DNA of 64,000 nt from Candidatus Omnitrophota bacterium (GCA_003154195.1 PMCS01000005.1:9449-73448), one strand, 5' to 3'; counted from the stretch's first letter, positions 4,951 through 29,519 are shown. A program made the numbers and translations. Notes: a model not told the origin generated them from the letters alone.

Positions 4951-5249
4951 TGGTTTATTTTTTATTATTTTTTTTACTCTTTCAAATACTTAATATTAAT
5001 CAACAAAATATGAGTATTAATATATAACATATTTTTTAGGGAAAAACAAGGAAACGGGATATTTCTTTTTTTTGCTGCGCAAAAAAATAAATATCGTCCA
5101 TATTTAACCCAAAAAATGCCTGCACCCCTTGGTAGGGATGACTACTTCATAACCCAAAGAAAACCAATGAGTTAGGTATAAAACATTACGCAACGAAATT
5201 TTTTGGGTTAACTGGAGGATTAAGGGTGTCGGGAAGGGCTAAATTAAAG

Positions 5250-5300
5250 AAAAAATGCCGTCACCTATTCTCTTTTTTAGAATAAGATAACGGCATTTTT
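5250..5300 (-). terminator. Putative rho-independent terminator downstream of the CsgG-like gene
   Basis: Hairpin aaatgccgt...acggcattt, followed on the minus strand by a T-run (5253-5300). Confidence 0.4.
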
Positions 5301-5334
5301 CTAGAATTGGTAAAATACGTCAGTATTTTCCCAA

Positions 5335-6072
5335 TTAGTACTTATAGTAATCCGCCGGAGTGGCCTGTGAAATATATTTCACGGCTTCAATAATGCAAAC
5401 CCGGATGGCTTTTTCCATCGGCGTGTTGGCATACATGGAAAGGCCGCCGCCTAATCCCCAACTGCCGGCGAAACCGGCCATAAACCCGGCACTGAAATCT
5501 TTAGCCTGGCCCTGAACGCGGGTCGCGGCCAAAACTTCGGAAGTCGAAGCGTCAACGATACGGATATCTAATGCCATATGCGATTTATTCATCGCACCGC
5601 TCAATAACCCACCCACTAATGCGCCGGCAATACCGCCGCCGCCGCCGATTCCCGCTCCACCGCCGCTGGCATTAGGCTCAAATTCGGTAACCGCCGCGGT
5701 AATGATTAAATCCGCGGTTTTAATCTTACCGCGCTGGGCTCCGGCGGTGCCTTGCGCTGCCGCGCCGGACGCGCCTAATTCCTGCTCCTGCATAATCGCG
5801 CTTAACACCTGGCGCTCCACCACCCGGTAACGGCTGGAATTCATCAACGCCGTTATCAACATCTCGCGCAGGCCCGTGCCGATCGCTCCTCCGGCCTTGG
5901 CGGCTTTAACTTCAAAATCCGCCACGGCGATACGCGCTTTTGGCCCGTTATACGGCGGCATCGCCTGCGTGCCGGCGTTATTATCGACCTGGGCCGTCGG
6001 CTCAAGCGTAGCGCAACCGGCTAAACCACTGATTATTAAAACGCTCATCGTCAATGCTAAAAATTTCTTCAT
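5335..6072 (-). CDS. CsgG-family lipoprotein (curli-type secretion channel homolog)
   Basis: MKKFLALTMSVLIISGLAGC lipobox. RIAVADFEVKAAKAG...GLREMLITALMNSSRYRVVERQVLSAIMQEQEL resembles the CsgG N-terminal region. Glycine-rich segment. The likely start is the internal MKKF rather than the TTG at 6099. Confidence 0.5.
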   Translation of the reverse strand: MKKFLALTMSVLIISGLAGCATLEPTAQVDNNAGTQAMPPYNGPKARIAVADFEVKAAKAGGAIGTGLREMLITALMNSSRYRVVERQVLSAIMQEQELGASGAAAQGTAGAQRGKIKTADLIITAAVTEFEPNASGGGAGIGGGGGIAGALVGGLLSGAMNKSHMALDIRIVDASTSEVLAATRVQGQAKDFSAGFMAGFAGSWGLGGGLSMYANTPMEKAIRVCIIEAVKYISQATPADYYKY

Positions 6073-6099
6073 CGTTACCCCTCCTTGAATACTGGGCAA

Positions 6100-6275
6100 A
6101 GGCTATGGCAAAGATGCCTGTATGGGTTAGGGCTTAGGTCATGGCTGTAAATTCGTATCAGCCTTAACCATTACCTTAACCCAAACCGGCTTTCCGCCTT
6201 CGCTAAAGCTTCGGCGAGACTTCTCCGAAGCTCGAAGAGCGAAGGAGAGCCTAGCCCTAACCTTAACCGATTTTA
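6100..6275. repeat. Palindromic intergenic repeat element, family 1 (GGGTTAGGG arms, central GTAAATTCGTATCAGCC), copy 1
   Basis: Shares atgcctgtatgggttagggc...ggctgtaaattcgtatcagcc...acccaaaccggctt with the copies at 23895, 26289, 27545, 29520 and 35620. Confidence 0.7.
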
Positions 6276-6866
6276 TTATTTCTGTTTATTCAACGCGTCG
6301 ATTATTTTCAATGCCAAGCTTTCCGCGGCGCGCGATAATGCTTCCCGGCCGCCGCTGATAAGGTCCGGATGGGCGGAATTTCCCGCGGCATCAAGGTAAG
6401 CGATAACCTTGCCGTCCTTAGCGCGAATAAGTTTGGCGGTAATATTTCCATAGCACGATTTCATATTCGACTGCGGAACATTGCCGCCGCTGGAAGCGAT
6501 TGCCTTGCCTAATATAACATAATCGGCGCCGGAGGAATTGCCTAATTGCGCCGATTCGCCCTGAGAAATATCCACCACGCGAAACGCCGGCTTCTGCTTG
6601 ATGACTTTCTCCGCGACAGAAGTATCGATAACATCATACCCCTCTTCAATCAGTTTTGTGGCGATTGCCGCCTCGGTCGTCGAAAGGTCAATCTCACTGG
6701 CCCACCACGCTTTCTGCGGGCCTTCGATATTCTGTTCGGCGATAAGTAAAATTACCTTAGGCTTTGCCGCAACAGGTTCCGCGCTGGTAACATTCTGGGA
6801 AAACACCGCGCCGCCGGTTAACGCAAACAAAAACAACAGTGTCCAAAAGAAAATATTTTTTTTCAT
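6276..6866 (-). CDS. Secreted hypothetical protein (signal peptide), encoded directly upstream of the CsgG-like gene
   Basis: Its position just upstream of the CsgG-like gene suggests a partner role, which is inference. N-terminal MKKNIFFWTLLFLFALTGGAVFS signal. No recognisable catalytic motif. Confidence 0.4.
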   Translation of the reverse strand: MKKNIFFWTLLFLFALTGGAVFSQNVTSAEPVAAKPKVILLIAEQNIEGPQKAWWASEIDLSTTEAAIATKLIEEGYDVIDTSVAEKVIKQKPAFRVVDISQGESAQLGNSSGADYVILGKAIASSGGNVPQSNMKSCYGNITAKLIRAKDGKVIAYLDAAGNSAHPDLISGGREALSRAAESLALKIIDALNKQK

Positions 6867-7148
6867 GGCTGCTCCTTTTGTAAAAAAATTCCTTACAGCG
6901 GCTATCCCCGCAGCAAGACTGCGGGGCGTTACGCCGCTCGTATGCCGCTTCGCGGCACCGGAATTTTTTTACATTCCATTCTCGTTCATCCCCAGGCCAG
7001 GTCAAAAACGGTTAGTTGTTTACAATGACCGTTGTCGCTTCACGCCGACCGCCAACTCATCCCTGCGACAAGACCTAAAGACGAGACATTGGCGGAAAAA
7101 CTTAAACCCCCTTCGCCGATATTTCAGGGTAATACACTAACGTCAACT

Positions 7149-7526
7149 TCAGCCGGCGACCATGATCAACTCTTTTATCTTATCCAGCAAAAGCTGAGGC
7201 TCAAACGGCTTAATAATATACGCGTCAGCCCCGACTTTTTGGCTGAATTTTATATCATCTTCCTGTGAACGCCCGGAAAAAATAATCACCGGAATGTTCT
7301 TAAAGCGCCGGTCTTTTTTAAGCAAGCCGCAAACCCAAAACCCGTCCATTTTGGGCAACATCAAATCCAAAAGAATTAAATCGGGCTTATCCTCCTTGGC
7401 TTTCCTGAGCGCGTCTTCCCCATCGTAAGCCGTCACAACCTCATACTGCTCCGCTTCCAAACGAAGCCGCACGATCCGAACCAACGACTCTTCATCGTCG
7501 ACCACTAATATTTTTTTCCTGTCCAT
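7149..7526 (-). CDS. Single-domain response regulator (CheY-like receiver)
   Basis: ILVVDDEESL...LLDLMLPKMDG...IIFSG...ADAYIIKPF matches receiver-domain signature residues. Confidence 0.8.
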   Translation of the reverse strand: MDRKKILVVDDEESLVRIVRLRLEAEQYEVVTAYDGEDALRKAKEDKPDLILLDLMLPKMDGFWVCGLLKKDRRFKNIPVIIFSGRSQEDDIKFSQKVGADAYIIKPFEPQLLLDKIKELIMVAG

Positions 7527-7529
7527 TCT

Positions 7530-7700
7530 GCGCCTTCGGCTCGCCTCTCGGCCCGTCTCGCTCGCCTCACGGCGAAGCCGTGGGCCGAAGGCTTGCCGAG
7601 GCGGACGCTCGCCTCTCGGCGAAGTGAGGGAAGCCGAGGGCTTGAAAATGAGTAAGTCTCAAACCCCTTCGCTAACGCTTCAGGGGTAATTCGCGCTATT
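7530..7700. repeat. GC-rich nested-palindrome repeat (ctcgcctctcggcgaag / gccgaggc units), related copy at 16925-16990
   Basis: Direct repetition of tcgctcgcctc(a/t)cggcgaag with paired gccgaggc segments. A similar block is at 16925-16990. Confidence 0.45.
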
Positions 7701-7741
7701 ATTTTTTCGTCATGAGTACACTAGAAAAAATAATGCGCTCA

Positions 7742-9172
7742 TTAAAAAAAACGGGCACCTTTTCGGTCACTTTCGTCTTCTTTAAGTACCTGCAAAAACG
7801 CGTCGACGACTTTTGGGTCAAACTGCTGGCCACTGCCTTTAACCAATTCCGCCATCGCCGCCTCCCGGCTCATTGCCGGCCGATAGGCGCGCGCGCTGGT
7901 CATCGCGTCATAAGCGTCGGCCACGGAAACAACCGCAGCAAAAATATGAATACCGGTACCACTTAACTTATCGGGGTAACCGGAGCCGTCGAAACGCTCG
8001 TGATGGCCCCGGATAATCGCCAGCACCTCTTCGGTAAGCTGAATCGGTTTTAAAATTTCTTCGCCGATAACCGGGTGCTCCCTGATTTTTTTCCACTCCT
8101 CATCGGTAAGCCGCCCGGTCTTATTCAGGATATTTTCGGCCACGGCGAGTTTACCGATATCATGCAAATACGCCGCGTCGCGCAATAACTCGATTTTTTC
8201 CAGAGGAAAACCCATGCGCGCGGCGATTTGAACGGCGTATTCGGCAACACGCTCCGAATGTCCGCAGGTATAAGAATCTTTGGCTTCTAAAATACGAATC
8301 AGCGATTTAATGGCATTATAGAAATAATTGTTGAGCTTGACGCGGGAACTATGAAGGCTCTCTGCCATGCGATTGAAAGAATCCGCCAGGAGGCTTAATT
8401 CGTCATCGCCGGAGATTTTAACCCGGTACTGTAAATTATCTTTAGCGATATTCTCGGTGCCTTTAACTAATTCTTCGATGGGCTTGGTGATACTGCGCGA
8501 TACCAATGTCCCCAGAAACAACGAGAAGATAACCCCGAAAAGTAACACCAGCGTAGCGCGCCCCTGAATTTCTTCCTGGGCCAAATAAACATCGCCGGCC
8601 ATAAGGTCGACTCCCAGAATAGCCGCGGCAGTTCCTTTTTTGTCGCGGATAGGAGCGTATCCGGAAACAAGCTTGCCCCACCGGTCTTCGCCTATTTTCT
8701 TATCCGCCGTCGGCCCGTTAAAAGCACGCATCATCTCGGGAAAATTCGACGGGTTATATTCATCTCCGGGGTATGAGGCCAAACCGTTATTGCCGGGTTC
8801 GCGGGATACCGGTTCAGAATCCACAATATAACATAACCGGCCGGGCCTGACGGCCCTGCTCATAATGTAGATACGGCGTATCGGCGGATTGGCGTTTTTG
8901 ATCGCGTTTATCTGTCCGGATATTTTTTTATATTCCGAAGAATTTACCGCCTCTTTATTCAGCTTGATCTGCGCCAGCATTTCGGCATCAATCGTCAAGG
9001 CCGCCGTTTGCGCGATAATCCGCAGATTATCCCGAAATTGCGCGAACTGAGAATTAAGCGAGTAGCGGTAAATGAGATAATCGCTTAAGGCCCCGGCGCA
9101 GAGCATCGCCACGATAAACACAAAGGCGATTTTCATGCGGAAAGTACTCAAGAATAATCCGGCTTTTTTCAT
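7742..9172 (-). CDS. HD-GYP domain c-di-GMP phosphodiesterase-type sensor protein with N-terminal TM, extracytoplasmic sensor region and HAMP
   Basis: HD...HDIGK...GYP motifs (CGHSERVAEYA...LHDIGKLAV...RFDGSGYPDKL). N-terminal TM MKIAFVFIVAMLCAGAL and a second TM before a HAMP-like linker. Confidence 0.8.
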   Translation of the reverse strand: MKKAGLFLSTFRMKIAFVFIVAMLCAGALSDYLIYRYSLNSQFAQFRDNLRIIAQTAALTIDAEMLAQIKLNKEAVNSSEYKKISGQINAIKNANPPIRRIYIMSRAVRPGRLCYIVDSEPVSREPGNNGLASYPGDEYNPSNFPEMMRAFNGPTADKKIGEDRWGKLVSGYAPIRDKKGTAAAILGVDLMAGDVYLAQEEIQGRATLVLLFGVIFSLFLGTLVSRSITKPIEELVKGTENIAKDNLQYRVKISGDDELSLLADSFNRMAESLHSSRVKLNNYFYNAIKSLIRILEAKDSYTCGHSERVAEYAVQIAARMGFPLEKIELLRDAAYLHDIGKLAVAENILNKTGRLTDEEWKKIREHPVIGEEILKPIQLTEEVLAIIRGHHERFDGSGYPDKLSGTGIHIFAAVVSVADAYDAMTSARAYRPAMSREAAMAELVKGSGQQFDPKVVDAFLQVLKEDESDRKGARFF

Positions 9173-9193
9173 GATTTTGCGGTTTACAAGGCG

Positions 9194-9754
9194 TCACTTC
9201 TGTTTCCAGACTTTGCCCTCTTTTTTTTGAACTTCAAACCAGCAGCCGGCCTTGGCTCTCTGATAATGGTCGATATAAAAAAATTGCTGCGCTCCCTCTA
9301 CCGCTATTTTATTATTTTCGGCGGTGGCTTTATAGATAATCTCGCGATCCCGGTTTTCCGCCTCAACCGCTTGCGTAACTTTTCCCTTGAAATCGTCGGG
9401 CACGCCATCCCTTACCTGCAAAAAAGCGTCAAGCTTTTCACCGACATAACCCTTGACGGAATAATCTTCTATCTCCGGCGCCCTGGCCTTGCGGTGCGCA
9501 ATCGCTTCGTCGACGGCGGCAACCGGCGTTTCCTGAGCATAAGCTTCCGGAACGATTACCTTCAATAAAGAGTTAAGCTGCTTTTCTTTTTTTCCGTAAA
9601 TCCGGTCTTCAATGGACGAGGCTTCTTTCTCCACATGCTGATAAATATCGATACGCATCGTCACATCTACCTTAATCGGCTTAGTCGCCTCGACGCTGAG
9701 TTTCGCGCAGCCTAATACCGCCGCTACCATTGCAATAATCACCAGCTTTTTCAT
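9194..9754 (-). CDS. YdbL-like periplasmic lipoprotein (DUF1318 family)
   Basis: MKKLVIIAMVAAVLGC lipobox. The C-terminal EAENRDREIIYKATAENNKIAVEGAQQF...AKAGCWFEVQKKEGKVWKQK resembles the DUF1318/YdbL signature. Confidence 0.5.
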   Translation of the reverse strand: MKKLVIIAMVAAVLGCAKLSVEATKPIKVDVTMRIDIYQHVEKEASSIEDRIYGKKEKQLNSLLKVIVPEAYAQETPVAAVDEAIAHRKARAPEIEDYSVKGYVGEKLDAFLQVRDGVPDDFKGKVTQAVEAENRDREIIYKATAENNKIAVEGAQQFFYIDHYQRAKAGCWFEVQKKEGKVWKQK

Positions 9755-9900
9755 AGTTAACCTCCCTATCTTACCGTAAAGCCGTAGGATGCCCGCAGCC
9801 TTCGGCTGCTTGGACGTAGGACGCAATAATGATCAAGAACGTTCCTCAAACCCCTCGTCCTTACATCCCAGCGAAGAGAACGTCCCACGTCCTACGGTAT

Positions 9901-11046
9901 TTAGTCACCGCCCGCCCGATGCACCGGAACGTCGATGTCCCGCCTTCCCTGCGCGAAAGAATCGAAAACAATCCGTGTTACCATCTCGTCATTAACCATA
10001 GTAATTTTTATGATTCCACTATTATATGCATAATTTTTAAAACCGTCAATCAGCGTATTGTATTGTGTCTCATTCAACCCGCGGCGTAAAAAACCCAGCG
10101 AATCATCTTTTTTTATATCGATAAACCCCCCGCCGATATTGCTGAAAACCGCTCCCAAGCTGCTGATTTTTCCGTCCGCAATGAATAGATTAAGGCCGGC
10201 GTCAAAAAGCCCATCAGCCCGAAAATCACCTTTGTCCACAAGAATGCCGACCACGCTGTCTAATGACATATCTTTAAGGTTAAGCCCAACCGCGATATCG
10301 CGATAACCGGAAAAAATAATCGCTCCAAAAATTTCCGCCCGGGGGCCGAAGAAGATATTCTGCGCGTCAACTAATATAATATTGCTTCCTTCGATTTTCA
10401 AAGGAACCGTTAACCCTTCGATGCTTCTTTTACCGATTTTTGCCCCGTCAATTTTTAAACTATACAGACCGCCGCCGCAAGGCAAAAGGCTCAAGCGGTT
10501 GATGATTAAATCACGGGAGGAAAAATTAAAATAATCAATCCGCGCGGCCGATATGCCGATTATCCTTTTATCGTCGACTAAACATTTCAAAAATAAAGCG
10601 GCGGCGAACTCCGCCTCGGTTCCGGTATATTTTATTTGTATATTTTTTAGTTCAAGGGGCAGAGGAAAAATATTGAAGCCGGTATTAACTTTAGCGGAAT
10701 TGGTAAATTTAGCGGCTAATCTGCGTTTAAGCCGCGCGGGATTTTTTACGGTAATTTTTGCGCCATCAATACCGACGGCGCTGATTGCCGGAGGAAAAAT
10801 ATTAAAATTTACGCTAAACCTTGATAAAATAACTTCGATATCTTCATCGATAAAACTTAAATTAACCAGGGCCGCGCCCGCCCCTGAAATCTTGGCGGCT
10901 TCGACACGACATTTTCCCCCAAACTCATTTTCGACGAAACCCGTGATATATTTTTTTAACGCCGTTTCTTTATAAAAAAATACAAATACCGCGGACAAGA
11001 CCGCAACCGCCAAAACGATATATCCAATTCTACGCACGCGTTTCAC
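9901..11046 (-). CDS. Membrane-anchored AsmA/YdbH-like protein (putative)
   Basis: N-terminal TM, beta-rich repetitive body, sited immediately upstream of the YdbL-like gene as in ydbH-ydbL arrangements. Weak assignment. Confidence 0.3.
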   Translation of the reverse strand: MKRVRRIGYIVLAVAVLSAVFVFFYKETALKKYITGFVENEFGGKCRVEAAKISGAGAALVNLSFIDEDIEVILSRFSVNFNIFPPAISAVGIDGAKITVKNPARLKRRLAAKFTNSAKVNTGFNIFPLPLELKNIQIKYTGTEAEFAAALFLKCLVDDKRIIGISAARIDYFNFSSRDLIINRLSLLPCGGGLYSLKIDGAKIGKRSIEGLTVPLKIEGSNIILVDAQNIFFGPRAEIFGAIIFSGYRDIAVGLNLKDMSLDSVVGILVDKGDFRADGLFDAGLNLFIADGKISSLGAVFSNIGGGFIDIKKDDSLGFLRRGLNETQYNTLIDGFKNYAYNSGIIKITMVNDEMVTRIVFDSFAQGRRDIDVPVHRAGGD

Positions 11047-11055
11047 GGGGTATGA

Positions 11056-11565
11056 TTAAAGTGAATTACCACCGACTGAAGCCGGATGATTTTCTTTGTT
11101 TTCGATATATTTCACGAAAACAACAAGGTCGTCGCCGTCTTCGTAAAAATCTTTTATCCTGCCCGCCTCCTTAAAATCCTGTTTGAGGTAAAAATTACGC
11201 GCGGCGGAATAGTCGACCCTCGACGACGTTTCAACCCGTAAAATTGCCTTGGGATATTTAGCGGACAAAAAATCCTGCACTTTCGTTATTAATCTTTTGC
11301 CCATGCTCCGGCGCTGGAAATGCCGGTCCACCACAAGCCAATAGATATCCCAGGCAAACTCGGTCATGGGAGTTCTGCCAAAAATGACAAACCCGACCAC
11401 GCGGTCGCCGTCTTTTTCTTCAAAAATGCGGTAAGTGGTACCGGGATTGCCGCGATAATCCTCGACGACTTCGTTTAAGGTATCGATTTCAACCGATTTG
11501 AAAACTTCAGAGTTTCTGGCGATAGTCAGATAGATATCGCCGACGGTCAATTCTTGTTCGTACAT
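11056..11565 (-). CDS. GNAT family N-acetyltransferase
   Basis: WLVVDRHFQRRSMGKRLI...LRVETSSRVDYSAARNFYLKQDF resembles the GNAT acetyl-CoA binding motif region. Confidence 0.75.
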   Translation of the reverse strand: MYEQELTVGDIYLTIARNSEVFKSVEIDTLNEVVEDYRGNPGTTYRIFEEKDGDRVVGFVIFGRTPMTEFAWDIYWLVVDRHFQRRSMGKRLITKVQDFLSAKYPKAILRVETSSRVDYSAARNFYLKQDFKEAGRIKDFYEDGDDLVVFVKYIENKENHPASVGGNSL

Positions 11566-11709
11566 AGCCCCTCCTGAATATCATTGCATTTCTTTACGCA
11601 GTAAACCCCGTTAGAGAACTCCGTTCTCTAACGGTCTGCGCTGACAGTGGCATTAGACCACCGTCAGCTTTATCGCTGGACAACCGCCGCCTAAAGTCGG
11701 CGGCTTTCT

Positions 11710-12702
11710 CTAACGGGGTAAAAATAAAGACCCGATTATTTTTCCGATCACCTGGTTATAGCCATACCCCTTAGAATAGGCTTGCTTCATAAAACCGCTG
11801 TCCCGATTGATATCGGGATTAGGGTTTACATCCAGAACAAAAAGTTCGTTATCTTTCTGGCGCAGATCTACCCGGAAATAGCTGCGGCAGTTTAAAGCTT
11901 TAGCGGCTTCCCGGGATAACGATATTATCCTATTTTTAATATTTTTATCAATATTTTCCTTAAGCGAAGGCATAATTTTTTTAAACTCCAGGGACTGCCG
12001 ATTCCACTTGGAATTATAAGTTAAAAAAGGCGGCAAGCCTTTATAACGGGAGTAATCAATAACGGAAATACCCAGCAATTCATACGGCCAATTGCCCAGA
12101 AACCCCACGCTATACTCTTTACCCCATAAGAATTCCTCTACGATAACACCGTCGGAGAATTGGCGCAGCTTGTCTTTAACGATAGCGGGCAAATGTTTTT
12201 TCGAAGCCACTAAAGAATTATCGTCAATACCGAGGCTGGCGTCTTCGCGCGCCGGCTTGACAAAAACAGGGTAACGCAAAAGCTCCGGTTTAAGATCGCC
12301 TAATGCCTTGATATGCAATCCCGCCGGCACGGCTATACCGCGGCGCGCCATAATCCGTTTAGCCGCGCTTTTATCCAGGCAAGCATTAAGCGTCCGGGAA
12401 CCGTTCCCGGAAAAAGGTATTTTTATTTCCTCTAAAATTTCGACAAAATCTACCTCTTTTTGCGCATCGCCGCTGAAACCCTCGAAAAGATTAAAAATAC
12501 AGCAGGGATTGAACACGGCGATTTTTTTCTTTATTAACCCGCGGGTTAAGAAATCTTTTTTCGTAATCCCCACGGTAACGGCGCTAAAACCATTTTTTAA
12601 AATAGCCCGGCGCACGCAGGTATAACAACGCACGATGTCCCGCATATCCTTGCGCAATAACCTTTCCCGCGGAATAATAATTACTACTTTATTACTATGC
12701 AT
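11710..12702 (-). CDS. ATP-grasp ligase, D-Ala-D-Ala ligase-like family
   Basis: LDKSAAKRIMARRGIAVPAG...YPVFVKPAREDASLGI...VIVEEFLWGKEYSVGFLGN...VDLR...LFVLDVNPNPD. The start is probably the internal ATG at 12702, which overlaps the upstream stop in a TAATG arrangement. Confidence 0.7.
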   Translation of the reverse strand: MHSNKVVIIIPRERLLRKDMRDIVRCYTCVRRAILKNGFSAVTVGITKKDFLTRGLIKKKIAVFNPCCIFNLFEGFSGDAQKEVDFVEILEEIKIPFSGNGSRTLNACLDKSAAKRIMARRGIAVPAGLHIKALGDLKPELLRYPVFVKPAREDASLGIDDNSLVASKKHLPAIVKDKLRQFSDGVIVEEFLWGKEYSVGFLGNWPYELLGISVIDYSRYKGLPPFLTYNSKWNRQSLEFKKIMPSLKENIDKNIKNRIISLSREAAKALNCRSYFRVDLRQKDNELFVLDVNPNPDINRDSGFMKQAYSKGYGYNQVIGKIIGSLFLPR

Positions 12703-16763: not shown

Positions 16764-17082
16764 TTAGCTATCATCCTCCTTTATTTTTTACTTCATAAAC
16801 AATAAAACATTTTATCCGCTTCGCGGATAATAAAATGGCATGCCGATTAAAAAATATTTTTGAATAACCGATTGTTTTTTCTTTTCTCTTGATCATCCGC
16901 CTAACCGGAAAAATTGCTGCCTGCTCGCAGCGCTCAGTCCGTCTCGCTCGCCTCTCGGCGAAGCTGATGGCCTTCGCCTTGCCGAGGCTGACGCGAATCA
17001 AAACGAACCGTTAGCGCAGGCGTGACATATTTTTTCGGTTAGGGTGATTTTTATTTTTTGCTTCGCAAAAAATATAAAGCTA

Positions 17083-18107: not shown

Positions 18108-18129
18108 ATTTGATTATATAAAAAATATA

Positions 18130-19305: not shown

Positions 19306-19429
19306 GAAAATACTTATTTTCGGTATGAAATTTTTTACGCGGCAAAAAATAAATATCAGGTAAGATTCTGCGAGTTGGCGCTAAAAAAATAGTTATCCGA
19401 CAATTGGTTACACCCTGCCGCCAAACTTA

Positions 19430-20329: not shown

Positions 20330-20400
20330 AAAAAATGCCTGCCTGCTGCCGCACTCGACCCTGGCCAATAGCAGGCATAACGCATTTTTCCGGTTAGAAA
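20330..20400 (-). terminator. GC-rich hairpin flanked by A/T runs, probable terminator after GYD gene
   Basis: aaaaaatgcctgcctgctgccgcactcgaccctggccaatagcaggcataacgcattttt. The stems gcctgct/agcaggc and aatgc/gcatt are flanked by A and T runs. Confidence 0.4.
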
Positions 20401-20427
20401 ATATATTTTTGAACAAAAAGATTGGTT

Positions 20428-20706: not shown

Positions 20707-20733
20707 ACCGGTTCACCTCCTTTAATGAGCAGA

Positions 20734-21944: not shown

Positions 21945-22265
21945 GGTTTTATTTTTGTAACGAGAGGGGAAACCGGTAAATTTCGCTATCTCGCGGCTTT
22001 TACTTTCTGCTTAAAACATTATAGCAAAATATAAGCGTCAAGGGAAAGGAAAACATAAAATATTTAAGCGCACTTTAAAAAACTATTTGCGGGGGCAAGT
22101 ATTTATGCTATAATTCTTTCGGTTTTCATATTTATTTTTGCTGCGCAGAAAATAAATATTGTCCGCTTCGCGGATAAAAAATAATAAGACTAACCCGGAA
22201 AATTTTCGCCTTTGCCTAAAAAAACCGGGACTATTAATTTAAATTGTTCTTAAAGTTGAAACTAT

Positions 22266-22342: not shown

Positions 22343-22349
22343 GTATTCA

Positions 22350-22385
22350 TAAAAAACCCACCATTTTATTGGTGGGTTTTTTGTT
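22350..22385 (+). terminator. Rho-independent terminator after tRNA-Asn
   Basis: aaaaacccaccattttattggtgggtttttt: a 9-bp stem followed by a T-run. Confidence 0.6.
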
Positions 22386-22427
22386 TTGGTTGATATAATT
22401 TATCGTAGATTGCCGGCGTAAAAATCG

Positions 22428-23009
22428 CTAAGCGAGAACAATCGCTTTACTTACCTTTTCCGCTTCTTTTTTCCCGCAAAGTTTTTCCACAATGCTCAGG
22501 GCGAATTCTATCGATGTCCCCGCGCCGCGGCTGGTAATAAGATTGCCGTCAACCACCACATTTCGCGCCTGGAATTTAGTTTCACTCCCGAACGCGTCCT
22601 CCATGCCGGGAAAACAAGTGGCCGTCTTTCCTTTTAATATACCGGTAGGCGCTAAAACAACTGCCGGCGAGGCGCAGATCGCCGCGATAACCTTGCCACT
22701 TTTGTTCATATCGACAATTACGGTTTTCAACGCGGATGAAGCGGCAAGATTTTTCGCGCCCGCCCCGCCTCCGGGAAGGACTAAGGCGTCAAAATTCAAA
22801 TCCGTCTCATTAAACTTCTTATCGGCAATGACATTGACGCCACGGCTGCTCTTTACTTTTATATCGGCCAATCCGGCAACCGTCACCTCAATTTGCGCCC
22901 GGCGCAGGATATCGATCGGCGCCATCGCCTCGATTTCTTCAAATCCGTCAGCAAGTATGACCAGTGCTTTTTTTGGCATAGTATTTTTAAAGTTACAAAA
23001 ATCAGTCAA
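22428..23009 (-). CDS. DJ-1/PfpI (ThiJ/YajL) family protein
   Basis: ALVLPGGGAGAKNL...VIAAICASPAVVLA (nucleophile-elbow Cys)...ITSRGAGTSIEFALSIV. Confidence 0.8.
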   Translation of the reverse strand: MTDFCNFKNTMPKKALVILADGFEEIEAMAPIDILRRAQIEVTVAGLADIKVKSSRGVNVIADKKFNETDLNFDALVLPGGGAGAKNLAASSALKTVIVDMNKSGKVIAAICASPAVVLAPTGILKGKTATCFPGMEDAFGSETKFQARNVVVDGNLITSRGAGTSIEFALSIVEKLCGKKEAEKVSKAIVLA

Positions 23010-23129
23010 TATTTCCTAAAGTTACTGGATTCTTTTGCACCATCAAAAAAAACGTTAATTAACCTCGAGCAATACCAAATAATATTAAATAAAAGCAACC
23101 CGCAAGGTGCGCTTGGAGCAGGCAAAGAG

Positions 23130-23145
23130 CGGCAAATATTTGCCG
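23130..23145. promoter_or_regulatory. Perfect 16-bp palindrome CGGCAAATATTTGCCG in intergenic region
   Basis: Seen directly. A related half-site ttgccgctatttgccgcg is at 23254-23272. Confidence 0.3.
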
Positions 23146-23294
23146 CTAAAATGATTGCAAAAAACGCAGGCATACTCAAAGAGTATGTCGAGGTTCACCT
23201 AAAGGCGAAATCTCGCCTACGGCGGACTTTTTGCAACATTTGCAGCGCAAAGAGTTGCCGCTATTTGCCGCGAGCAAGCGCATTTTGCGGGTTG

Positions 23295-23891
23295 TCACAC
23301 AAGCCTTCTCTCCACCAGCGCTTTGCCCAGAGTCACCGAATCGATATACTCGATCTGCGTGCCCAGGGGAATGCCGATGGCGATGCGATAAATTTTAACT
23401 TTATACGGCGAAATCTTCTCAATCAAGTACTGCGCGGTCAATTCGCCTTCATTATCGGGATCGGTAGAGATGATGACTTCGCTGACCTCGCCTTTTTCTA
23501 AACGGCTGATCAACTTCCCGAGATTAAGCTCTTCGCCGTAGACTCCCTCTAAAGGAGAGATGCGGCCAAGTAAAACATAATAAATACCGTTATAGGAAGA
23601 AGTTTTTTCGATTGCCATGATATCTTTCGGTTCTTCGACAATGCATACCACGTCTTTATCGCGCTTAACATCGGCGCAGATATGGCAGGCATCGCCGCTT
23701 GAAAAATTATTGCATATACGGCACGGCTTAATATGATTATGTAATTCTTCCATTTTTACCGCCAGATCCTTGACCTGCGACAGCGGCATCTTCAATAGAT
23801 AATAGGCCATCCTCTCGGCGCTGCGCCTGCCCACGCCGGGGAATTTCGTAAAGGCATTGACTAAATCGGTAAAAGCTTTGTTAAAACTCAT
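23295..23891 (-). CDS. recR: Recombination protein RecR
   Basis: Zinc finger CRICNNFSSGDACHIC, Toprim VVCIVEEPKD...STDPDNEGE, C-terminal Walker-B-like region. Confidence 0.9.
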   Translation of the reverse strand: MSFNKAFTDLVNAFTKFPGVGRRSAERMAYYLLKMPLSQVKDLAVKMEELHNHIKPCRICNNFSSGDACHICADVKRDKDVVCIVEEPKDIMAIEKTSSYNGIYYVLLGRISPLEGVYGEELNLGKLISRLEKGEVSEVIISTDPDNEGELTAQYLIEKISPYKVKIYRIAIGIPLGTQIEYIDSVTLGKALVERRLV

Positions 23892-23894
23892 GTT

Positions 23895-24025
23895 GTTAAA
23901 CTGGGTTAGGGTAAAGATGAGGAAGCCAGTATGGGTTATGGCTAAGGTTAAGGCTGAAAATTTGTATCAGCCATGGCCCTTGCCCTTACCCAAACCGGCC
24001 GCTTAACCCTGGCCATAGCCTAATC
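23895..24025. repeat. Palindromic intergenic repeat element family 1, copy 2
   Basis: ctgggttagggtaaagatgaggaagccagtatgggttatggctaaggttaaggctgaaaatttgtatcagcc...acccaaaccggccgcttaaccctggcc. Confidence 0.7.
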
Positions 24026-25780
24026 ATTTTCCACATCCAGTTTCCCGCCAAAAGTATCCAGAAGGTCGTTGATAAAATCATTACTTTTCTCATTATCGGC
24101 GCCGGAATCGGCAGATACCCCGCCGCCTTCCGAACCCTGGGTTTTATGCCCGGCGCCGGAAACCGGAATATTCGTGTTTGCCGTAGAAACCGCCAGAGCC
24201 TTATCGACCAGAATAAATTTAATCCCCGCCGGTTTATTCAAAATATGGGCGACTACCCCTTCGATAAATTTAAGATTTTTGCTGCTCTCCACGATTTCTT
24301 TATGAAAGTAATCATTCTTATGGAAAGCGATTCTTATTAAAGAACCTTGCGACGATACCGGCAGAGAATACGACAGATGCGAAGCAATCGCTGCCCTTAC
24401 TTTTTGTATATGTGAAAGAATCTCCTGCCATTTTGCCTTAACCTGACTGAACAACAAATCATCGCTTGCCCGGCTATCTTCATCTTTAGCCGGCGAAGAT
24501 GCGTCGCTTACGCCGGACGCATCATCTTCATCCGGGACAAGCGCATCAATCTCTTTGCTCAGTTGTTCTTCCGTATCCAAATTTACGGCAGCGGCCGCTT
24601 TCCCCTGGGGAACCGAAATTTTATTGGCCGGCGCCGGATTCTGCGGCTTAACCGGCGGCACGGCGGCCTGAACCGGCAAAGCATCTTTACTCTTATCGTA
24701 TAAAAATTTAATCACCGCCAACTCTAAAGGAATCCGGACGGTATTTAATTTCGCGGAATGCTCTTTTGCCTCGAGCAATAAATCAATTACCAGCAAAATC
24801 CGGCCGGCGGTAATGCCCGCGCTTATTTTGCCGAGCAATTCTTTGCTTTGCGGCGACACTTCAGCCAACTCCGTAAAAGTCCGGGGGCTTACTTTGCAAA
24901 GCAGGAGATTCCTTAAATGCTCTACGAGCGAAGATAAAAATATCGCCAGGTCTTTGCCGTCCCGGGACAATCGGTCGATAAGCGAAAGGAGCGGCGTCAA
25001 ATCTTTCTGAATGATAAAGTTAACTGCGTTATTTAAAATATCTTCATCAATGATCCCCAGAAAGGAAAAAATATCGCCCAGGGGCTTTTTTTCCATAACC
25101 AGCGGCATAAGCTGGTCCAGCAAAGACTCGGCGTCACGGATACTTCCGCCGCCGGCGCGGGCAATCGCGTAAAGCAGGTTTTCCTCGATTTTCACGTTTT
25201 CCGCTTCGGTTATTTTTTTAAGTTTAGCGGCAATCTTTTCCTGGGCAACGAGGTTGAATTGAAACTTCTGGCACCGCGACAGAATAGTCGGCAGAACTTT
25301 ATGCGGATGGGTAGTGGCAAAAATAAATTTAACGTGCGGCGGCGGCTCTTCCAGGGTTTTAAGCAGGGCGTTAAACGCCTCCTGGGTAAGCATATGGACT
25401 TCGTCAATGATGTAAATTTTGTAGCGCGAACGCGCCGGCGAAAGCTTGATGCTTTCGATTAAAACCCTTACTTCATCGATCCCGCGGTTGGAAGCGCCGT
25501 CAATCTCAATGATATCCAGCGACGACGCGCGAATAATTTCCGTACAACTCAAACACTGGCCGCAAGGCTTAACGGACGGGCCCTTCTCGCAATTTAATGA
25601 TTTCGCAAAGATCCGGGCGACGGAAGTCTTGCCGATTCCCCGCGGCCCGCTGAAAAGATAAGCATGATGCACGCGCTCTTTTAGAATAGCGTTTTTTAAC
25701 GCAGTAGTAACGTGCTCCTGGCCGACGACATCGTCGAAACATTGGGGGCGATACTTTAAGGCTAACGCTTTATATTCCAT
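24020..25780 (-). CDS. dnaX: DNA polymerase III subunit gamma/tau
   Basis: MEYKALALKYRPQCFDDVVGQEHV, GPRGIGKTS Walker A, zinc module CGQCLSC, and TLEEPP box. The start is the internal ATG at 25780, which sits immediately after the T7GC-N3-GCA8 palindrome with no SD. Confidence 0.9.
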   Translation of the reverse strand: MEYKALALKYRPQCFDDVVGQEHVTTALKNAILKERVHHAYLFSGPRGIGKTSVARIFAKSLNCEKGPSVKPCGQCLSCTEIIRASSLDIIEIDGASNRGIDEVRVLIESIKLSPARSRYKIYIIDEVHMLTQEAFNALLKTLEEPPPHVKFIFATTHPHKVLPTILSRCQKFQFNLVAQEKIAAKLKKITEAENVKIEENLLYAIARAGGGSIRDAESLLDQLMPLVMEKKPLGDIFSFLGIIDEDILNNAVNFIIQKDLTPLLSLIDRLSRDGKDLAIFLSSLVEHLRNLLLCKVSPRTFTELAEVSPQSKELLGKISAGITAGRILLVIDLLLEAKEHSAKLNTVRIPLELAVIKFLYDKSKDALPVQAAVPPVKPQNPAPANKISVPQGKAAAAVNLDTEEQLSKEIDALVPDEDDASGVSDASSPAKDEDSRASDDLLFSQVKAKWQEILSHIQKVRAAIASHLSYSLPVSSQGSLIRIAFHKNDYFHKEIVESSKNLKFIEGVVAHILNKPAGIKFILVDKALAVSTANTNIPVSGAGHKTQGSEGGGVSADSGADNEKSNDFINDLLDTFGGKLDVEND

Positions 25781-25979
25781 ATATTTTTTTGCTCCGCAAA
25801 AAAAATATCCGTTATCCGCTTCGCGGATGAAAAACAAAATTCCGGTATTTCTTGCGCAATATTTTGCTTAACCGGATAAACCAAAATTCTGGGGATAATC
25901 CAATTAAAAGTTTTTATTGTTTTATTGCTTCCCTCTCCCTTCATCATTCGGTCTTCGGTCATCGGTTATTCTAATGCGG

Positions 25980-26288
25980 CTACATCGACCGCAGCCTCAT
26001 CGCCCAATCAAATAAAGTCCGGATTAAAAAATCTTTTAAAAACCAAATCGCTAAAAACGCGATTATCGGCGATATGTCAATACCCATCTTAAGGCTAAAG
26101 GGCAGAATCCGCCTTATCGGTTCCAGAATCGGCTCCGTCACCTGGTATAAGAATTTTACGATTGGATTGTACGGATCAGGACTGACCCAGCTCAGCAGGG
26201 CGCGGATTAGAATAATCCAGTAGAATACCGTTAATACCGTGTTTAGTATACTCGCCAGCGCTGAGATGAAATTTGCCAAAATAAACAT
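25980..26288 (-). CDS. YggT family membrane protein
   Basis: ~100 aa with two TM segments. YWIILIRALLSWVSPDPYNPI matches YGGT-family signature. Confidence 0.65.
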   Translation of the reverse strand: MFILANFISALASILNTVLTVFYWIILIRALLSWVSPDPYNPIVKFLYQVTEPILEPIRRILPFSLKMGIDISPIIAFLAIWFLKDFLIRTLFDWAMRLRSM

Positions 26289-26425
26289 ATTATTAAACTG
26301 GGTCAGGGTAATGGCAAGGATGCCAGTATGGGTTATGGCTAAGGTTAAGGCTGTAAATTCGTATCAGCCCTAGCCTTTACCTTCACCCAAACCGGCTTCG
26401 TAACCTTAACCGTAACCATATATTT
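26289..26425. repeat. Palindromic intergenic repeat element family 1, copy 3
   Basis: ~85% identical to copy 2 over ~125 bp. Confidence 0.7.
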
Positions 26426-26427
26426 TA

Positions 26428-27333
26428 TCAGGAACTCTGCCGGTACAACTTATAAACCGCATAAGAAATATAAGCGATGAACTTTTTTGCTTTCCCATAG
26501 TTTCTTACGTCTTTGGTCAAAACGCAGATGATAAAATCTCCCCGGCCGGAAAAAATAATCCCGGCGTCATGGACAACCCCCCGCTCCAGGCCGGTTTTAT
26601 GCGCCACGATAACTCCGTAAGGCAGATAACGCGGGATGCGGTCTTTCATCGTTTGTCTTTTTAACAGCGCGAGCATAAACATGGAAGACTTCTTATCGAT
26701 AAGGTTAAAACTATAAATCTTTTCTAAAAGAGATGCTATCTCGTAAGTCGTGGTAAAATTATCGAACCCTTTTTTTCTTTGAGAAAAGTCCATCATCGGA
26801 CGGACAAGCGCCGTTTTATTTAACCCCAACCCCTTAAAGACGCCGTTGATGTAATCGTAGCCTAAAATATCGATGACTTTGTTAGCCGCGGTATTATCGC
26901 TCTCGGTAATCATCAAATATAGTAATTTCTTGAAGGTTATGCTGATGGGAAGGCGCAGGCGCTTAAGCAAACCGGAACCGCCGGCGATATCACCCCGGCG
27001 GATGACTATCACGTCATTCAGCTTTACCTTGCCTTCCCTGACTGCGTTCATGCTGACGGCCAGAATGGGAAGTTTTATTAAACTCGCCGCGGGAAATAAT
27101 TCATTATCGTTATGGACTACTTCCAAAGACGGCCGTCTCAAGTCCCGGATTACAATCGAATAATTGCCGCGGAAACGGCGGGAAAGATAAGACAATTGGA
27201 CCCTTAAGCGCTGGTATAGCTTCGCGCTCTGGCCATAAGAAGATGCTTCGGCGGCCTTAAAATAAATCCCGCCGGCAAGCGAAACAATCAAGAGCGAAAC
27301 AAGCGGAATAAAAATATATCGTCTTTTCATCAT
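26428..27333 (-). CDS. Class A beta-lactamase-like serine hydrolase (secreted)
   Basis: Signal peptide. SxxK (ASLIK), SDN (ITESDNTAAN) and KTG (HKTGLER) motifs in canonical order. Confidence 0.65.
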   Translation of the reverse strand: MMKRRYIFIPLVSLLIVSLAGGIYFKAAEASSYGQSAKLYQRLRVQLSYLSRRFRGNYSIVIRDLRRPSLEVVHNDNELFPAASLIKLPILAVSMNAVREGKVKLNDVIVIRRGDIAGGSGLLKRLRLPISITFKKLLYLMITESDNTAANKVIDILGYDYINGVFKGLGLNKTALVRPMMDFSQRKKGFDNFTTTYEIASLLEKIYSFNLIDKKSSMFMLALLKRQTMKDRIPRYLPYGVIVAHKTGLERGVVHDAGIIFSGRGDFIICVLTKDVRNYGKAKKFIAYISYAVYKLYRQSS

Positions 27334-27544
27334 TAGAGATCTTTATACGGCTCTTTCAATACCTTTATCACACAAAAAAGACAAAGGCCGACGATTAAAC
27401 CCCAGGAAAAAATTAAAAATATCCAACCAGAAATGGTCATATTATTAAAAACTAGTGCACTGTCAAATTAATTTTTACTGGTATCACTTCAGGAAAAATT
27501 AATTTCTACATGCACTTGTACCGCGCACCACTATTAAAAATTAA

Positions 27545-27712
27545 GTTGACGCGGTGCTAGGTTAGGGCAATGGTAAAGAAGCCTGTATAGACTATGGCCA
27601 AGTAAAGGCTAAAAAATTGTTTTAAGCCCTTACCTTTACTCATACCGGCTTCCTCACCCTAACCTTAACCGATTACTATTACCGGCTTCCTAACCCTGAC
27701 CTTAGCCTCTTA
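27545..27712. repeat. Palindromic intergenic repeat element family 1, divergent copy 4
   Basis: ggttagggcaatggtaaagaagcctgtatagactatggcc...accggcttcctcaccctaaccttaacc...accggcttcctaaccctgacc. Confidence 0.55.
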
Positions 27713-29228
27713 TCTTCGCACGGTGCGCCCGGCGCACCAATATCGCCACTAAAATAAAGATGCCGGCCATCGCCAGGCGCGTCCCCCAAACAAAAGGAAC
27801 GTTTTTTGCCTCTACCCCTTTTAGCATGAACGTCGGCACGGCCTGCTGAAAAAACCAAAATCCTAAGACAAAAATCAAAAACGCCGGAGTGATGTATTTA
27901 ATAACAAATCTATAAAAACGCGGAATCGCCAGTTCCGCGCCGTGATGCATCTCTTCCCAGGCGTTATTTATCCCAAAAATCCACACGAAAAGAATGCATT
28001 CAATCAAGGCGAAAATAATCAGAAAAAATGAGCCAGCCCAGAAATCTAATTCATCCATCACCCCGCGGCTTAAAAAAAATATGGGGAATTGGCAAAGGAT
28101 AAAACTGACAACGCCTAATATCCCGATACTTTTTTTACGCGAAATCGCCAGGTCGTCGCTTAAAAAAGCCACTGCCGGCTCTAATAAAGAAATACTGGAA
28201 GTTATACCGGCTAAAAACAGGAGAAAAAACCATAAAAACGCGAAAATCATGCCGCCGGCCATCTGAGAAAAAATCAAAGGCATCGTAACGAAACCGATAT
28301 TAAAACTTCCGCTCTTTGCCGCCGCTAAACTGCCCGCCCCGCCGAAAAACATAAAACTAAGAGGGATAACGATCGTCCCGCCTAAAATAACTTCGGCGAA
28401 TTCATTCAGGGAAGCCGCGGTCAACCCGGATAAAACAATATCATCACCCTTAGAAAGGTAACTGGCGTAAGTGATGATTACGCCGATACCCACGCTTAAA
28501 GTAAAAAGGATCTGCCCGCAAGCCGCGAGCCATACCTTGGCGTCCCCTAAGGCTCTAAAATCCGGGTTCCACATAAACCCCAGGCCGCCGAGGACATTCC
28601 AATCGGGATGTAATTTGTTCGGCGCGCCTAAAGTCAAGACCCGGACGACGATGATAAAAGCAGCGACAAATAAAAGCGGCATGGCAATTTTACAAAGCTT
28701 TTCGATACCGCCCTTCACTCCTTTGTAGATAACCAAAAAATTTAAGAAAAAAGTAATGACAAAAAATAAATACGATAAAGGAAAAATCTTCGATGAACCG
28801 ACCCCCTGATATTCCTGCAAAAAGGCAAGCGCCTGTTCTTTGGTCGTCATCCCCAGAAACGCGCCTTTCAGCGAATAATAGCAATAGCCCATCAGCCAGC
28901 TTTCGATATAGGTATAGTAGATAAAAATCATCAGCGGGCCGAATACGCCGATGGCGCCTAAATATTTAGCGGCGCGGTTACGCGACAGGCGGCTAAAAAT
29001 CAACGGCGCGGTCCCGTGGCCGAAGAGGCCGCCGTAACGGCCGATCGCCCACTCGATCCACATCAAGGGGATCCCTAAAAAAATAAAGGCGATGAAATAG
29101 GGGATTAAAAACGCGCCACTGCCGTTTTGCACCGCCTGAGAGGGAAAACGCAAAAAATTCCCCAGCCCGACGGCCGAACCGGCCACGGCTAAAATTATCC
29201 CGATTTTATTCGTCCACTTCTCTCTCAT
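27702..29228 (-). CDS. Sodium-dependent transporter, NSS/SNF family
   Basis: WTNKIGIILAVAGSAVGLGNFLRFP NSS signature, ~12 TM helices. The start is the internal ATG at 29228 (MREKW), which immediately follows a perfect TAAATATTTTTGC-TTT-GCAAAAATATTTA palindrome. Confidence 0.8.
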   Translation of the reverse strand: MREKWTNKIGIILAVAGSAVGLGNFLRFPSQAVQNGSGAFLIPYFIAFIFLGIPLMWIEWAIGRYGGLFGHGTAPLIFSRLSRNRAAKYLGAIGVFGPLMIFIYYTYIESWLMGYCYYSLKGAFLGMTTKEQALAFLQEYQGVGSSKIFPLSYLFFVITFFLNFLVIYKGVKGGIEKLCKIAMPLLFVAAFIIVVRVLTLGAPNKLHPDWNVLGGLGFMWNPDFRALGDAKVWLAACGQILFTLSVGIGVIITYASYLSKGDDIVLSGLTAASLNEFAEVILGGTIVIPLSFMFFGGAGSLAAAKSGSFNIGFVTMPLIFSQMAGGMIFAFLWFFLLFLAGITSSISLLEPAVAFLSDDLAISRKKSIGILGVVSFILCQFPIFFLSRGVMDELDFWAGSFFLIIFALIECILFVWIFGINNAWEEMHHGAELAIPRFYRFVIKYITPAFLIFVLGFWFFQQAVPTFMLKGVEAKNVPFVWGTRLAMAGIFILVAILVRRAHRAKIRG

Positions 29229-29519
29229 AATAAATATTTTTGCTTTGCAAAAATATTTATCTGGCAAAAAATGCTTTTCCCTAACGCATTTTTTGGGATA
29301 ATTTAGTATATCACCTATCGGTTTTTTATACAATATTTTTTGCGGTAGATTTAAGGAAGGGCTGAAAATATTTGGAAGAAAAATACTCTCATGACGCCGC
29401 CCCAGTTCGAAAAGAACGCTGAAAGCGCTCTTTTCGAACTCGCAGGGGAGGCAGTATCAATGAACCGCCATGGGAGAAATACAAAACTAAGGTTATGAAG
29501 ACGATATTGAAATCGGCTA

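Follow-up and report, generated by a model that had tools for sequence, protein, structure and literature searches.

A stretch of 64,000 nt from Candidatus Omnitrophota (PMCS01000005.1:9449-73448; hereafter the window) carries six copies of a short AT-rich palindrome in its intergenic spacers. Nearly all genes of the window are on the minus strand, and two of them, dnaX and an NSS/SNF-type transporter gene (hereafter SNF), identify the organism as a member of Candidatus Omnitrophota: in GTDB the closest match of DnaX was 50% identical, which puts the species outside that collection, the nearest database proteins reached 58-60%, and all those with a named source belonged to Omnitrophota or Omnitrophica. 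Besides dnaX and SNF, the palindromes (numbered w1 to w6, Table 1) precede genes as unrelated as those for a giant secreted protein, a kamA-like protein, a T2SSF-family protein and an ATPase. In the sense strand their consensus is (CGGAYR)ATATTTA-T5-8-GC-GNA-GC-A5-8-TAAATAT(YRTCCG), the loop becoming NNN if all sites are included. The element measures ~21-45 bp; its arms span 9-14 bp in the window, while related contigs have arms of 16 and 19 bp.

A search of the whole window with the pattern TTTTTGCNNNGCAAAAA (T5GC-N3-GCA5, at most one mismatch) returned precisely the six instances listed in a preliminary description of this DNA, at the positions given there. Dinucleotide shuffles of the whole window yielded 0.17 +/- 0.38 matches, none of 100 reaching six. 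Since intergenic DNA is more AT-rich (40.7% versus 46% GC) and rich in T- and A-runs, a null restricted to it (7.0 kb) was added; the mean was 0.03, the maximum 1, and 0 of 1000 shuffles reached six. All six sites were intergenic, intergenic DNA making up 11% of the window. Neither a swapped-arm control (A5GC-N3-GCT5) nor a swapped-clamp control (T5CG-N3-CGA5) had any match in the window, a control with a 4-nt loop had two, both within coding sequence and at chance level, and an nhmmer profile built from the sites recovered no additional copy in the window. The six palindromes are thus genuine, and their number is far above chance.

The paired regions reach past the cores first listed, so the lengths initially given were too short; the last site, reported as a perfect palindrome of 29 bp, is really one of 31 bp (29230-29260) with perfect 14-bp arms. 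Abutment on a start codon was confirmed at dnaX and SNF, two of the six sites, and does not extend to the other four, which lie 52, ~120, ~185 and ~285 nt off. The stem base of w5 takes in the A and the U of the dnaX ATG (25780), the only case in which AUG bases (two) fall within a stem foot, and the w6 stem ends on the base preceding the SNF ATG (29228). Site w3 lies 52 nt upstream of an SD-less (Shine-Dalgarno-less) T2SSF-family gene (ATG 19278), and w1 ~120 nt upstream of a giant open reading frame (ORF; ATG ~4949). Site w2 begins 5 nt past the stop codon of a 176-aa gene, ~285 nt upstream of the kamA-like ATG (16763), and w4 is placed between divergent tRNA-Asn and ATPase promoters, with the hairpin CCGCGAAGCGG immediately 5' of it. 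The dnaX and SNF start codons are backed by the N-termini of homologues (MEYKALALKYRPQ versus MSYLAFALKYRPQ, MREKWTNKIGII versus MRQKWTSKIGII). The SNF start was called differently among contigs, giving 508 or 521 aa (L002 5617-7143 versus L003 6514-8079); the longer call, by 13 codons, begins at a TTG just upstream of the palindrome, and homologue N-termini favour the 508-aa ATG at 29228.

Table 1. Palindromes, accompanying hairpins and other features; positions are those of the window unless a contig is named.
Feature	Position or paired region	Core	Strand	Characteristics
w1 palindrome	~5058-5095	5069-5085	-	sense GATATTTA-T7-GC GCA GC-A8-G-AAATATC; DNA fold -10.8 kcal/mol, z -4.9
w2 palindrome	17048-17078	17055-17071	-	loop GAA, core GCGAAGC; DNA fold z -3.65
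w3 palindrome	19330-19350	19332-19348 (1 mismatch)	-	weakest copy; one G.U pair in sense strand
w4 palindrome	22128-22159	22135-22151 (1 mismatch)	-	loop GCA, one bulged C
w5 palindrome	25779-25808	25786-25802	-	loop GGA, core GCGGAGC; DNA fold z -5.3
w6 palindrome	29229-29261	29237-29253	-	loop AAA; DNA fold z -6.3
Likely SNF promoter	29305-29333		-	TTGTAT-17-TGATATACT (TATACT, TG at -15/-14); matches orthologue promoters
First SNF 5'UTR hairpin	29263-29297		-	CCCAAAAAATGC...GCATTTTTTGCC, A6TGC...GCAT6; mirror polarity (A-run then T-run); directly 5' of w6; also in the terminator-like set
Long hairpin	6089-6193			
Long hairpin	23886-24030			
Long hairpin	26277-26435			
Long hairpin	27555-27675			
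Long hairpin	29547-29677			
Long hairpin	35665-35785			
Long hairpin	L116 4514-4651			
GC hairpin (third unit)	6953-6965			
GC hairpin (third unit)	16812-16830			
GC hairpin (third unit)	22162-22174			5' of w4
GC hairpin (third unit)	25814-25828		-	5' of w5
GC hairpin (third unit)	L116 ~11125-11140			
Terminator-like hairpin	5105-5205			
Terminator-like hairpin	5250-5300			
Terminator-like hairpin	20330-20395			
GC-rich repeated segment	6200-6260			in long leader
GC-rich repeated segment	7550-7650			in long leader
GC-rich repeated segment	16900-16995			in long leader
Giant ORF	1-4949		-	>1660 codons, runs off left end
Leader of 196-aa lipoprotein-like gene	6866-6975		-	likely TTGACC-16-GAGAAT promoter
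1213-aa ORF	35784-39425		-	no Pfam match at E<=0.001
AbiEii-family toxin gene	62976-63752			edge of polysaccharide-synthesis cluster

Evidence on the nature of the element came from comparing arms within and between sites. Eleven sites of this lineage were available in total, four of them from a loop-constrained search. The mean stem score was 12.1 for arms of the same site and 8.4 for arms of different sites; when arm pairings were permuted, 0 of 20000 permutations reached the observed total for the eleven sites (p<5e-5), and 4 of 720 did so for the window alone. The lengths of the T-run and the A-run vary in step (5/5, 6/6, 6/6, 7/7, 7/8, 8/7). Among the seven sites found without any loop constraint, the centre was GNA or TNC in five (four of the six in the window and one in contig L116), against 12.5% expected, and four of the six window sites contain the mini-hairpin GCGNAGC (GCGCAGC twice, GCGAAGC and GCGGAGC; the other two read GCAAAGC and GCCGCGT). 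Folded as DNA (z -3.7 to -6.3) or as RNA, five of the six sites were far better than their shuffles and w3 was weak; as RNA, w3 folded at -3.7 kcal/mol in the sense and -0.4 kcal/mol in the antisense strand. Covariation of the arms, covariation of the run lengths and a centre that is constrained and asymmetric thus indicate a hairpin and not the fixed operator of a dimer.

The preliminary description had taken the spaced inverted repeat as typical of a dimeric DNA-binding protein site. Put more fully, the 7-3-7 core TTTTTGC-N3-GCAAAAA would be the operator of a lineage-specific dimer that globally represses or activates genes through sites in promoters and leaders. The 17-bp dyad core does have the geometry of a classical helix-turn-helix operator, its sequence is near-invariant among copies, and the sites occupy promoter or leader regions, w4 even lying between two promoters. 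However, the arms compensate each other within a site and vary in length instead of following a half-site consensus, as the permutation of all eleven sites indicates, and the centre is conserved while being asymmetric. The putative targets (dnaX, the NSS transporter, the T2SSF, ATPase and kamA-like genes, the giant secreted protein) are unrelated, one copy sits within the spc ribosomal-protein operon, and the element is missing at the promoters of five SNF orthologues, in the dnaX neighbourhoods of relatives and in ~120 kb from nine other Omnitrophota loci. Many unrelated metagenomic hairpins, moreover, have the cap alone in common, with quite different outer stems. The claim was not sustained, and we regard an operator as very unlikely.

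Several classes of RNA element were compared with the palindrome. Rfam covariance models applied to 16.7-29.8 kb returned only tRNA-Asn at the gathering score and nothing relevant at E<=1. An intrinsic terminator was rejected: on both strands the U-tract precedes the stem and the A-tract follows it, and real terminators of this DNA have the opposite polarity (AAAAAACCCACC...GGTGGGTTTTTT). An RNA thermometer of FourU or ROSE type was likewise discarded, the U-run being paired with the A-run and the SD, if any, lying 3' of the stem (contigs L116 and L146).

The expression signals of the organism are ordinary. Sigma-70 promoters are of the TTGACA/TATAAT type (TTGACA-16-TATAAT at ~18140, TTGACG-17-TATAAT before the ATPase gene), and terminators are canonical, with an A-run, a GC stem and a T-run. 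A promoter scan found no -35/-10 pair with 16-18 bp spacing at any of the six sites; by eye, only a -10-like TATTTT was seen there, without a consistent -35. Five SNF orthologues with 71-76% amino-acid identity were fetched (L208, L209, L210, L214, L215), and none of their loci, of 8-21 kb each, contained the palindrome. Four of them (L208, L209, L210, L215) have TTTACA-16-TG(A/G)TATAAT 28-105 nt before an SD-less ATG, and the likely SNF promoter of the window that matches these lies ~45 nt upstream of w6. Site w6 is therefore placed within the SNF 5' untranslated region (5'UTR) as a lineage-specific addition. The stretch between promoter and w6 is taken up by a further hairpin, and the two-hairpin fold of the SNF leader has -24.2 kcal/mol (z -4.4). 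As this further hairpin is terminator-like and downstream of the likely promoter, the SNF leader has the layout of an attenuator.

A similar order was found in the related contigs. In L146, TTGATT-17-TGATATAAT is followed 17 nt on by a palindrome with extended arms as in the window (ACGGATAT-T7-GC..GC-A7-ATATCCGT) and then by SD and ATG. In L121 the palindrome lies between rplF and rplR in the ribosomal spc operon, 13-18 nt ahead of the SD-less rplR start. In L116, GGGAGGG-ATG and AAGGAGA-ATG are each immediately preceded by a copy, and a further copy abuts an SD-less ATG. These conserved promoters and this operon context suggest that transcripts carry the element in their leaders and intercistronic spacers.

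Alternatively, the palindrome itself could be a compact promoter, with TA and the T-run (TATTTT) as the -10 element, GCNNNGC as a GC-rich discriminator and the transcript beginning within the loop or at the first A, which would produce short A-rich or near-leaderless mRNAs. TATTTT or TAATTT does precede the GC clamp by 1-4 nt at every site, with a start 7 nt on falling in loop or clamp; no sigma-70 promoter is recognisable within 200 nt upstream of dnaX; and at w5, w6 and one L116 copy (L116b) the palindrome takes up nearly all of the space that separates the ATG from an upstream hairpin. Yet an A before the T-run is automatic with flanks of A and T only, the empty promoter scan and the inconsistent -35 apply to all sites, and at SNF and in L146 the palindrome is preceded by a good extended -10 promoter. 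The canonical promoter of the ATPase gene lies downstream of w4. The dyad symmetry would also be left unexplained and would create -10 elements face to face. It is, in our view, quite improbable that the palindrome works in this way. Three other candidates were rejected: a Bacteroidota-type -33/-7 promoter (TAnnTTTG), which fits one site only, the organism being an Omnitrophota with TTGACA-17-TATAAT promoters and SDs; a sigma-54 spacing (GG-N10-GC), which by eye fits no site; and a leaderless mRNA with the -10 at -12 to -7 from the ATG, a misfit at dnaX and SNF.

With respect to gene starts, 5 or 6 of the 11 lineage sites end 0-10 nt from an SD or ATG, in spacers of 80-580 nt; by a rough hand estimate, uniform placement would give ~0.7 (p ~1e-3). 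A crude scan found SD-like motifs at 15 of 38 starts, one of them, dnaX, a false positive, leaving ~14 real ones and ~60% of genes without an obvious SD; the w5 loop itself reads GGAG, 11 nt before the dnaX ATG. The lack of an SD at dnaX and SNF and the strong SDs elsewhere were as previously reported, and with such figures the absence of an SD is not exceptional. Most SD-less genes of the window carry no palindrome, which argues that it is not a general device for SD-less initiation. The other suggestion of the preliminary description, a lineage-specific promoter or translation-initiation element, thus holds in part: the element is lineage-specific and tied to cistron starts in about half of the cases, the promoter part is not supported, and it is not a general device for genes lacking an SD.

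The distribution of the palindrome is patchy. The nine other Omnitrophota loci held no such palindrome, and in relatives no spacer separates dnaX from the Na/Ca exchanger gene immediately before it. Six strain-level contigs (L001-L006), with identical DnaX and 99.9-100% identity, represent the same strain and are uninformative for footprinting; all palindrome copies are fixed across them. A metagenome scan with the GNA-constrained core gave >119 loci of 28-67% GC, which proved to be heterogeneous hairpins with only the cap in common. Their closeness to starts was no more than short spacers give, several 'starts' being those of spurious ORFs in high-GC DNA, and the downstream genes were functionally diverse and formed no regulon. 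No cross-phylum element is accordingly claimed, these hairpins being unrelated outside the cap and showing no excess near starts. Nor did a phage link emerge, as the 34 distinct matches in viral contigs were mostly without an extended stem and had a GNA or TNC loop in 29%.

Some metagenomic hairpins were observed repeatedly. One multi-copy element, GTAGGTCGGGTTAG-T7-GCGCAGC-A7-CGTAACCCGAC, has a mini-hairpin apex like that described here and is unrelated otherwise; it occurs in contigs L096, L112, L115, L128, L132, L145, L150, L155, L164, L185, L191 and L196, and its GTAG foot is typical of repetitive extragenic palindromes (REPs) associated with REP-associated tyrosine transposases (RAYTs). 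T-run/GCGNAGC/A-run hairpins also occur in unrelated contigs (L119, L156; L120, L130, L171, L184), where they directly follow either the 3' end of a tRNA or an arm resembling that of a tRNA (GGTTCGAATCC), and four high-GC contigs of the same unrelated set have the common flanks CTGnTCGArTCC...TGGTyGAGTTGCGCA.

The palindrome is accompanied by further hairpin repeats in its own lineage. A second family consists of long imperfect hairpins of 110-140 nt, GGTTAAGG...GGCTGATACGAATTTACAGCC...CCTTAACC...CCCAGTTTAAYAAY-ATG, with RNA folds of -36 to -58 kcal/mol; copies occupy the entire dnaX-recR and beta-lactamase-yggT spacers, up to the SD-less recR and yggT ATGs, and L116 and the window have both families in common. 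Contig L001, the same strain over 6.5 kb, loses collinearity exactly at the edge of a long hairpin (window 27555, L001 7952), beyond which it has RNR and His_Phos genes in place of SNF and no repeat; this breakpoint reflects a rearrangement between strains or else a join made at the repeat during assembly. A third unit is the GC hairpin ATCCGCGAAGCGGAT, (AT)CCGC-GAA-GCGG(AT), likewise with a GNA triloop, which lies 14-17 nt 5' of a T/A palindrome in three places, two in the window and one in L116. In L116 its apex GCGGAGC exactly complements that of the palindrome, GCUCCGC, and the minimum-free-energy fold (-14.8 kcal/mol) joins the two apices. The w4 and w5 modules have ~65 nt in common, companion hairpin included. 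None of these families was present in the other Omnitrophota loci examined.

Two additional groups of sequences may be noted beside these families. Terminator-like hairpins with the common sequence AAAAATGC(C)GTTA...GCATTTTTT also look like a repeat family, two of them being situated just 5' of w1 and w6. GC-rich repeated segments (CTTCGCCGAGAGGCGAGCGAGACGG and variants) occur in long leaders, including the ~290-nt region before the kamA-like radical-SAM gene.

Such an abundance of repeats brings up the main rival explanation, namely that the palindrome is a selfish or neutral DNA repeat comparable to miniature inverted-repeat transposable elements (MITEs), REPs or palindrome-associated transposable elements (PATEs), whose hairpin matters only as single-stranded DNA during mobilisation, for instance by an HUH/Y1 transposase, or arises by template switching. 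Proximity to starts would then stem from a preference for AT-rich targets and from tolerance of an A-rich arm before SD-less genes. The patchy, lineage-restricted distribution, the several other families in the same intergenic regions, the flanks held in common past the stem (GGACRATATTTA in w1 and w4, ACGGATAT in w5 and L146) and the inserted appearance of the SNF-leader element relative to orthologues are all as expected of a selfish repeat, as is a GNA cap that is the optimum of a DNA hairpin and has no gene-strand bias. On the other hand, neither the 20 window proteins scanned nor the called genes of L001-L004 include a transposase or RAYT, the copies lack a GTAG-type flank and any recognisable target-site duplication, the copies are all fixed in the six strain-level contigs, and the excess near SDs and ATGs, roughly estimated as it is, exceeds uniform placement. 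We consider a purely selfish repeat rather unlikely. A bolder combination, which seems unlikely as well and more so, is that spreading repeat modules (the T/A palindrome and the long hairpin) build cistron boundaries, each bringing a hairpin and an SD-less, A-rich context before the AUG; processed (e.g. by RNase III) or extruded, they might yield short or near-leaderless mRNAs and so act as a mobile expression cassette and not as a passive REP.

The hairpin could also act on duplex DNA, as a cruciform or extruded mini-hairpin serving as a supercoiling-sensitive switch at gene starts, or as a hairpin promoter or priming signal like the early promoters of phage N4 and the G4/ssi origins. AT-rich arms with a GCGNAGC cap are near ideal for extrusion, the w5 loop GCGGAGC also caps the promoter hairpin of N4, the sites show no preference for either strand of the genes, and w4 is in DNA that is probably not transcribed. 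No N4-like RNA polymerase or dedicated primase was found among the proteins scanned, though, extrusion has no link to an SD or ATG, and 9-14 bp is about as short as arms can be for stable cruciform extrusion. Such a role appears extremely improbable.

Non-chance recurrence, strictly intergenic location, hairpin-type covariation, absence from relatives and co-occurrence with a second hairpin family are established. The reading that we favour, giving it about even chances, is that of a lineage-specific family of small AT-rich, hairpin-forming extragenic palindromes, REP-like in kind, which lie at the 5' boundaries of cistrons and act through the hairpin and not through a sequence-specific dimeric protein. 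The palindrome would be transcribed as 5'UTR or intercistronic spacer, and in the RNA the U-tract arm and the A-tract arm would pair into a 9-19 bp stem with two G-C pairs closing a triloop. The stem would stand at the 5' boundary of the downstream cistron, often ending on the SD or AUG, where its most likely role would be to mark and protect the mRNA boundary, by limiting exonucleolytic or 5'-end-dependent decay or by serving as a processing site. It may also set access to the A-rich, SD-less leader made by its 3' arm. By analogy only, an effect on mRNA stability, processing or translation may be proposed.

Several observations weigh against this RNA-level hairpin. The main misfit is w4, which by its position between divergent promoters may escape transcription, and transcription through the element is itself deduced from promoters and operon context. 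In the sense strand the loop reads GNA at 6 sites and UNC at 3, so that it shows no gene-strand bias, and GNA triloops are much more stable in DNA than in RNA; a hairpin at the DNA level fits both facts at least as well. Fold energies of the two strands are nearly equal, with few informative positions, G.U counts included. A stable stem ending on an SD-less AUG would be expected to hinder initiation. Finally, the evidence comes from eleven sites of one lineage, four of them recovered with a constraint on the loop.

Other features of the DNA were recorded along the way. The giant ORF starts with a signal peptide (MIFFFSQPRRKLFSKITLVLVLFSFLGTSLGVNYAHA), and its region (the first 4.9 kb) looked non-coding because ORF calling did not list the open-ended frame. 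Upstream of the AbiEii-family toxin gene is an overlapping 205-aa gene, likely encoding an AbiEi antitoxin (toxin gene and upstream region, L211 1696-3082). Extending the window at its right end added only 2.3 kb. The leader of the 196-aa lipoprotein-like gene folds into several hairpins, enclosed by A7TTCC...GGAAT7, and the structure stops immediately ahead of the SD; structured leaders ending at the translation start seem common in this genome.

If the palindromes are functional, a repeat family set on the translation starts of SD-less dnaX, NSS transporter and rplR genes would be worth following, as a handle on how such genomes set mRNA boundaries and SD-less translation starts; if they are only selfish DNA, the finding is an ordinary one. 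For annotators and assemblers the palindromes and the long hairpins matter, since these repeats explain odd start-codon calls such as the SNF frame that is 13 codons longer in one contig, and mark a synteny breakpoint between strains. On gene-expression signals in Omnitrophota the literature searched contained nothing; members of this phylum are very small bacteria, uncultured and possibly dependent on a host.

Among known systems, the palindromes are closest in kind to the REPs and bacterial interspersed mosaic elements (BIMEs) of enterobacteria and pseudomonads, which are also short, imperfect, multi-copy and strictly extragenic palindromes forming lineage-specific families, and which are often transcribed within operons, where the hairpin shapes mRNA stability and the expression of neighbouring cistrons, an effect that may apply here by analogy. 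The six copies, with arms of 9-19 bp over the lineage, agree with the general description of a REP. However, no GTAG-type tetranucleotide was present at the stem foot in the six window sites or the L116 sites, and no cognate Y1/HUH transposase (RAYT) in the protein set scanned for the selfish-repeat question; the arms are near-pure T- and A-runs with a 2-bp GC clamp, and the copies tend to occupy the 5' edge of the cistron that follows and not the position behind the preceding stop codon. The family is not a RAYT-associated REP as defined and resembles REPs in kind. Matus-Garcia, Nijveen and van Passel reportedly described, in 2012, putative mobile promoters, or promoter propagation, as near-identical upstream segments before unrelated genes; the w4 and w5 modules are alike over ~65 nt before unrelated genes, the difference being that no recognisable promoter lies inside the repeated segment here.

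The apex recalls the mini-hairpin GCGNAGC of Hirao, with its C-G closing pair and G and A at the loop ends, as found at four of the six window sites; this structure has a much greater stability in DNA than in RNA (PMC13037366). The mini-hairpin is a 7-mer structural unit and not a genetic element, whereas here it caps a much longer AT stem, and two sites have the loops AAA and CGC. The promoters of the phage N4 virion RNA polymerase and the G4/ssiA priming hairpins similarly combine a 3-nt GGA or GAA loop, a short stem and a GC clamp at a start of synthesis; those systems depend on a polymerase or primase of their own and on DNA that is single-stranded or extruded, while the present copies are on a cellular chromosome downstream of ordinary promoters. 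No N4-type virion RNA polymerase was found among the window proteins scanned, the 1213-aa and >1660-aa ORFs having no Pfam assignment or lying outside the scan. The 5' stem-loop stabilisers of the ompA and aprE leaders and the intercistronic RNase III sites of phage T7 are single sequences and not a repeated family, and a processing or stabilising role could be extended from them to the palindromes by analogy only. Their layout, a promoter or upstream cistron followed by a hairpin and then by the SD or AUG, is the one also found in L146, in the SNF leader and in the rplF-rplR spacer.

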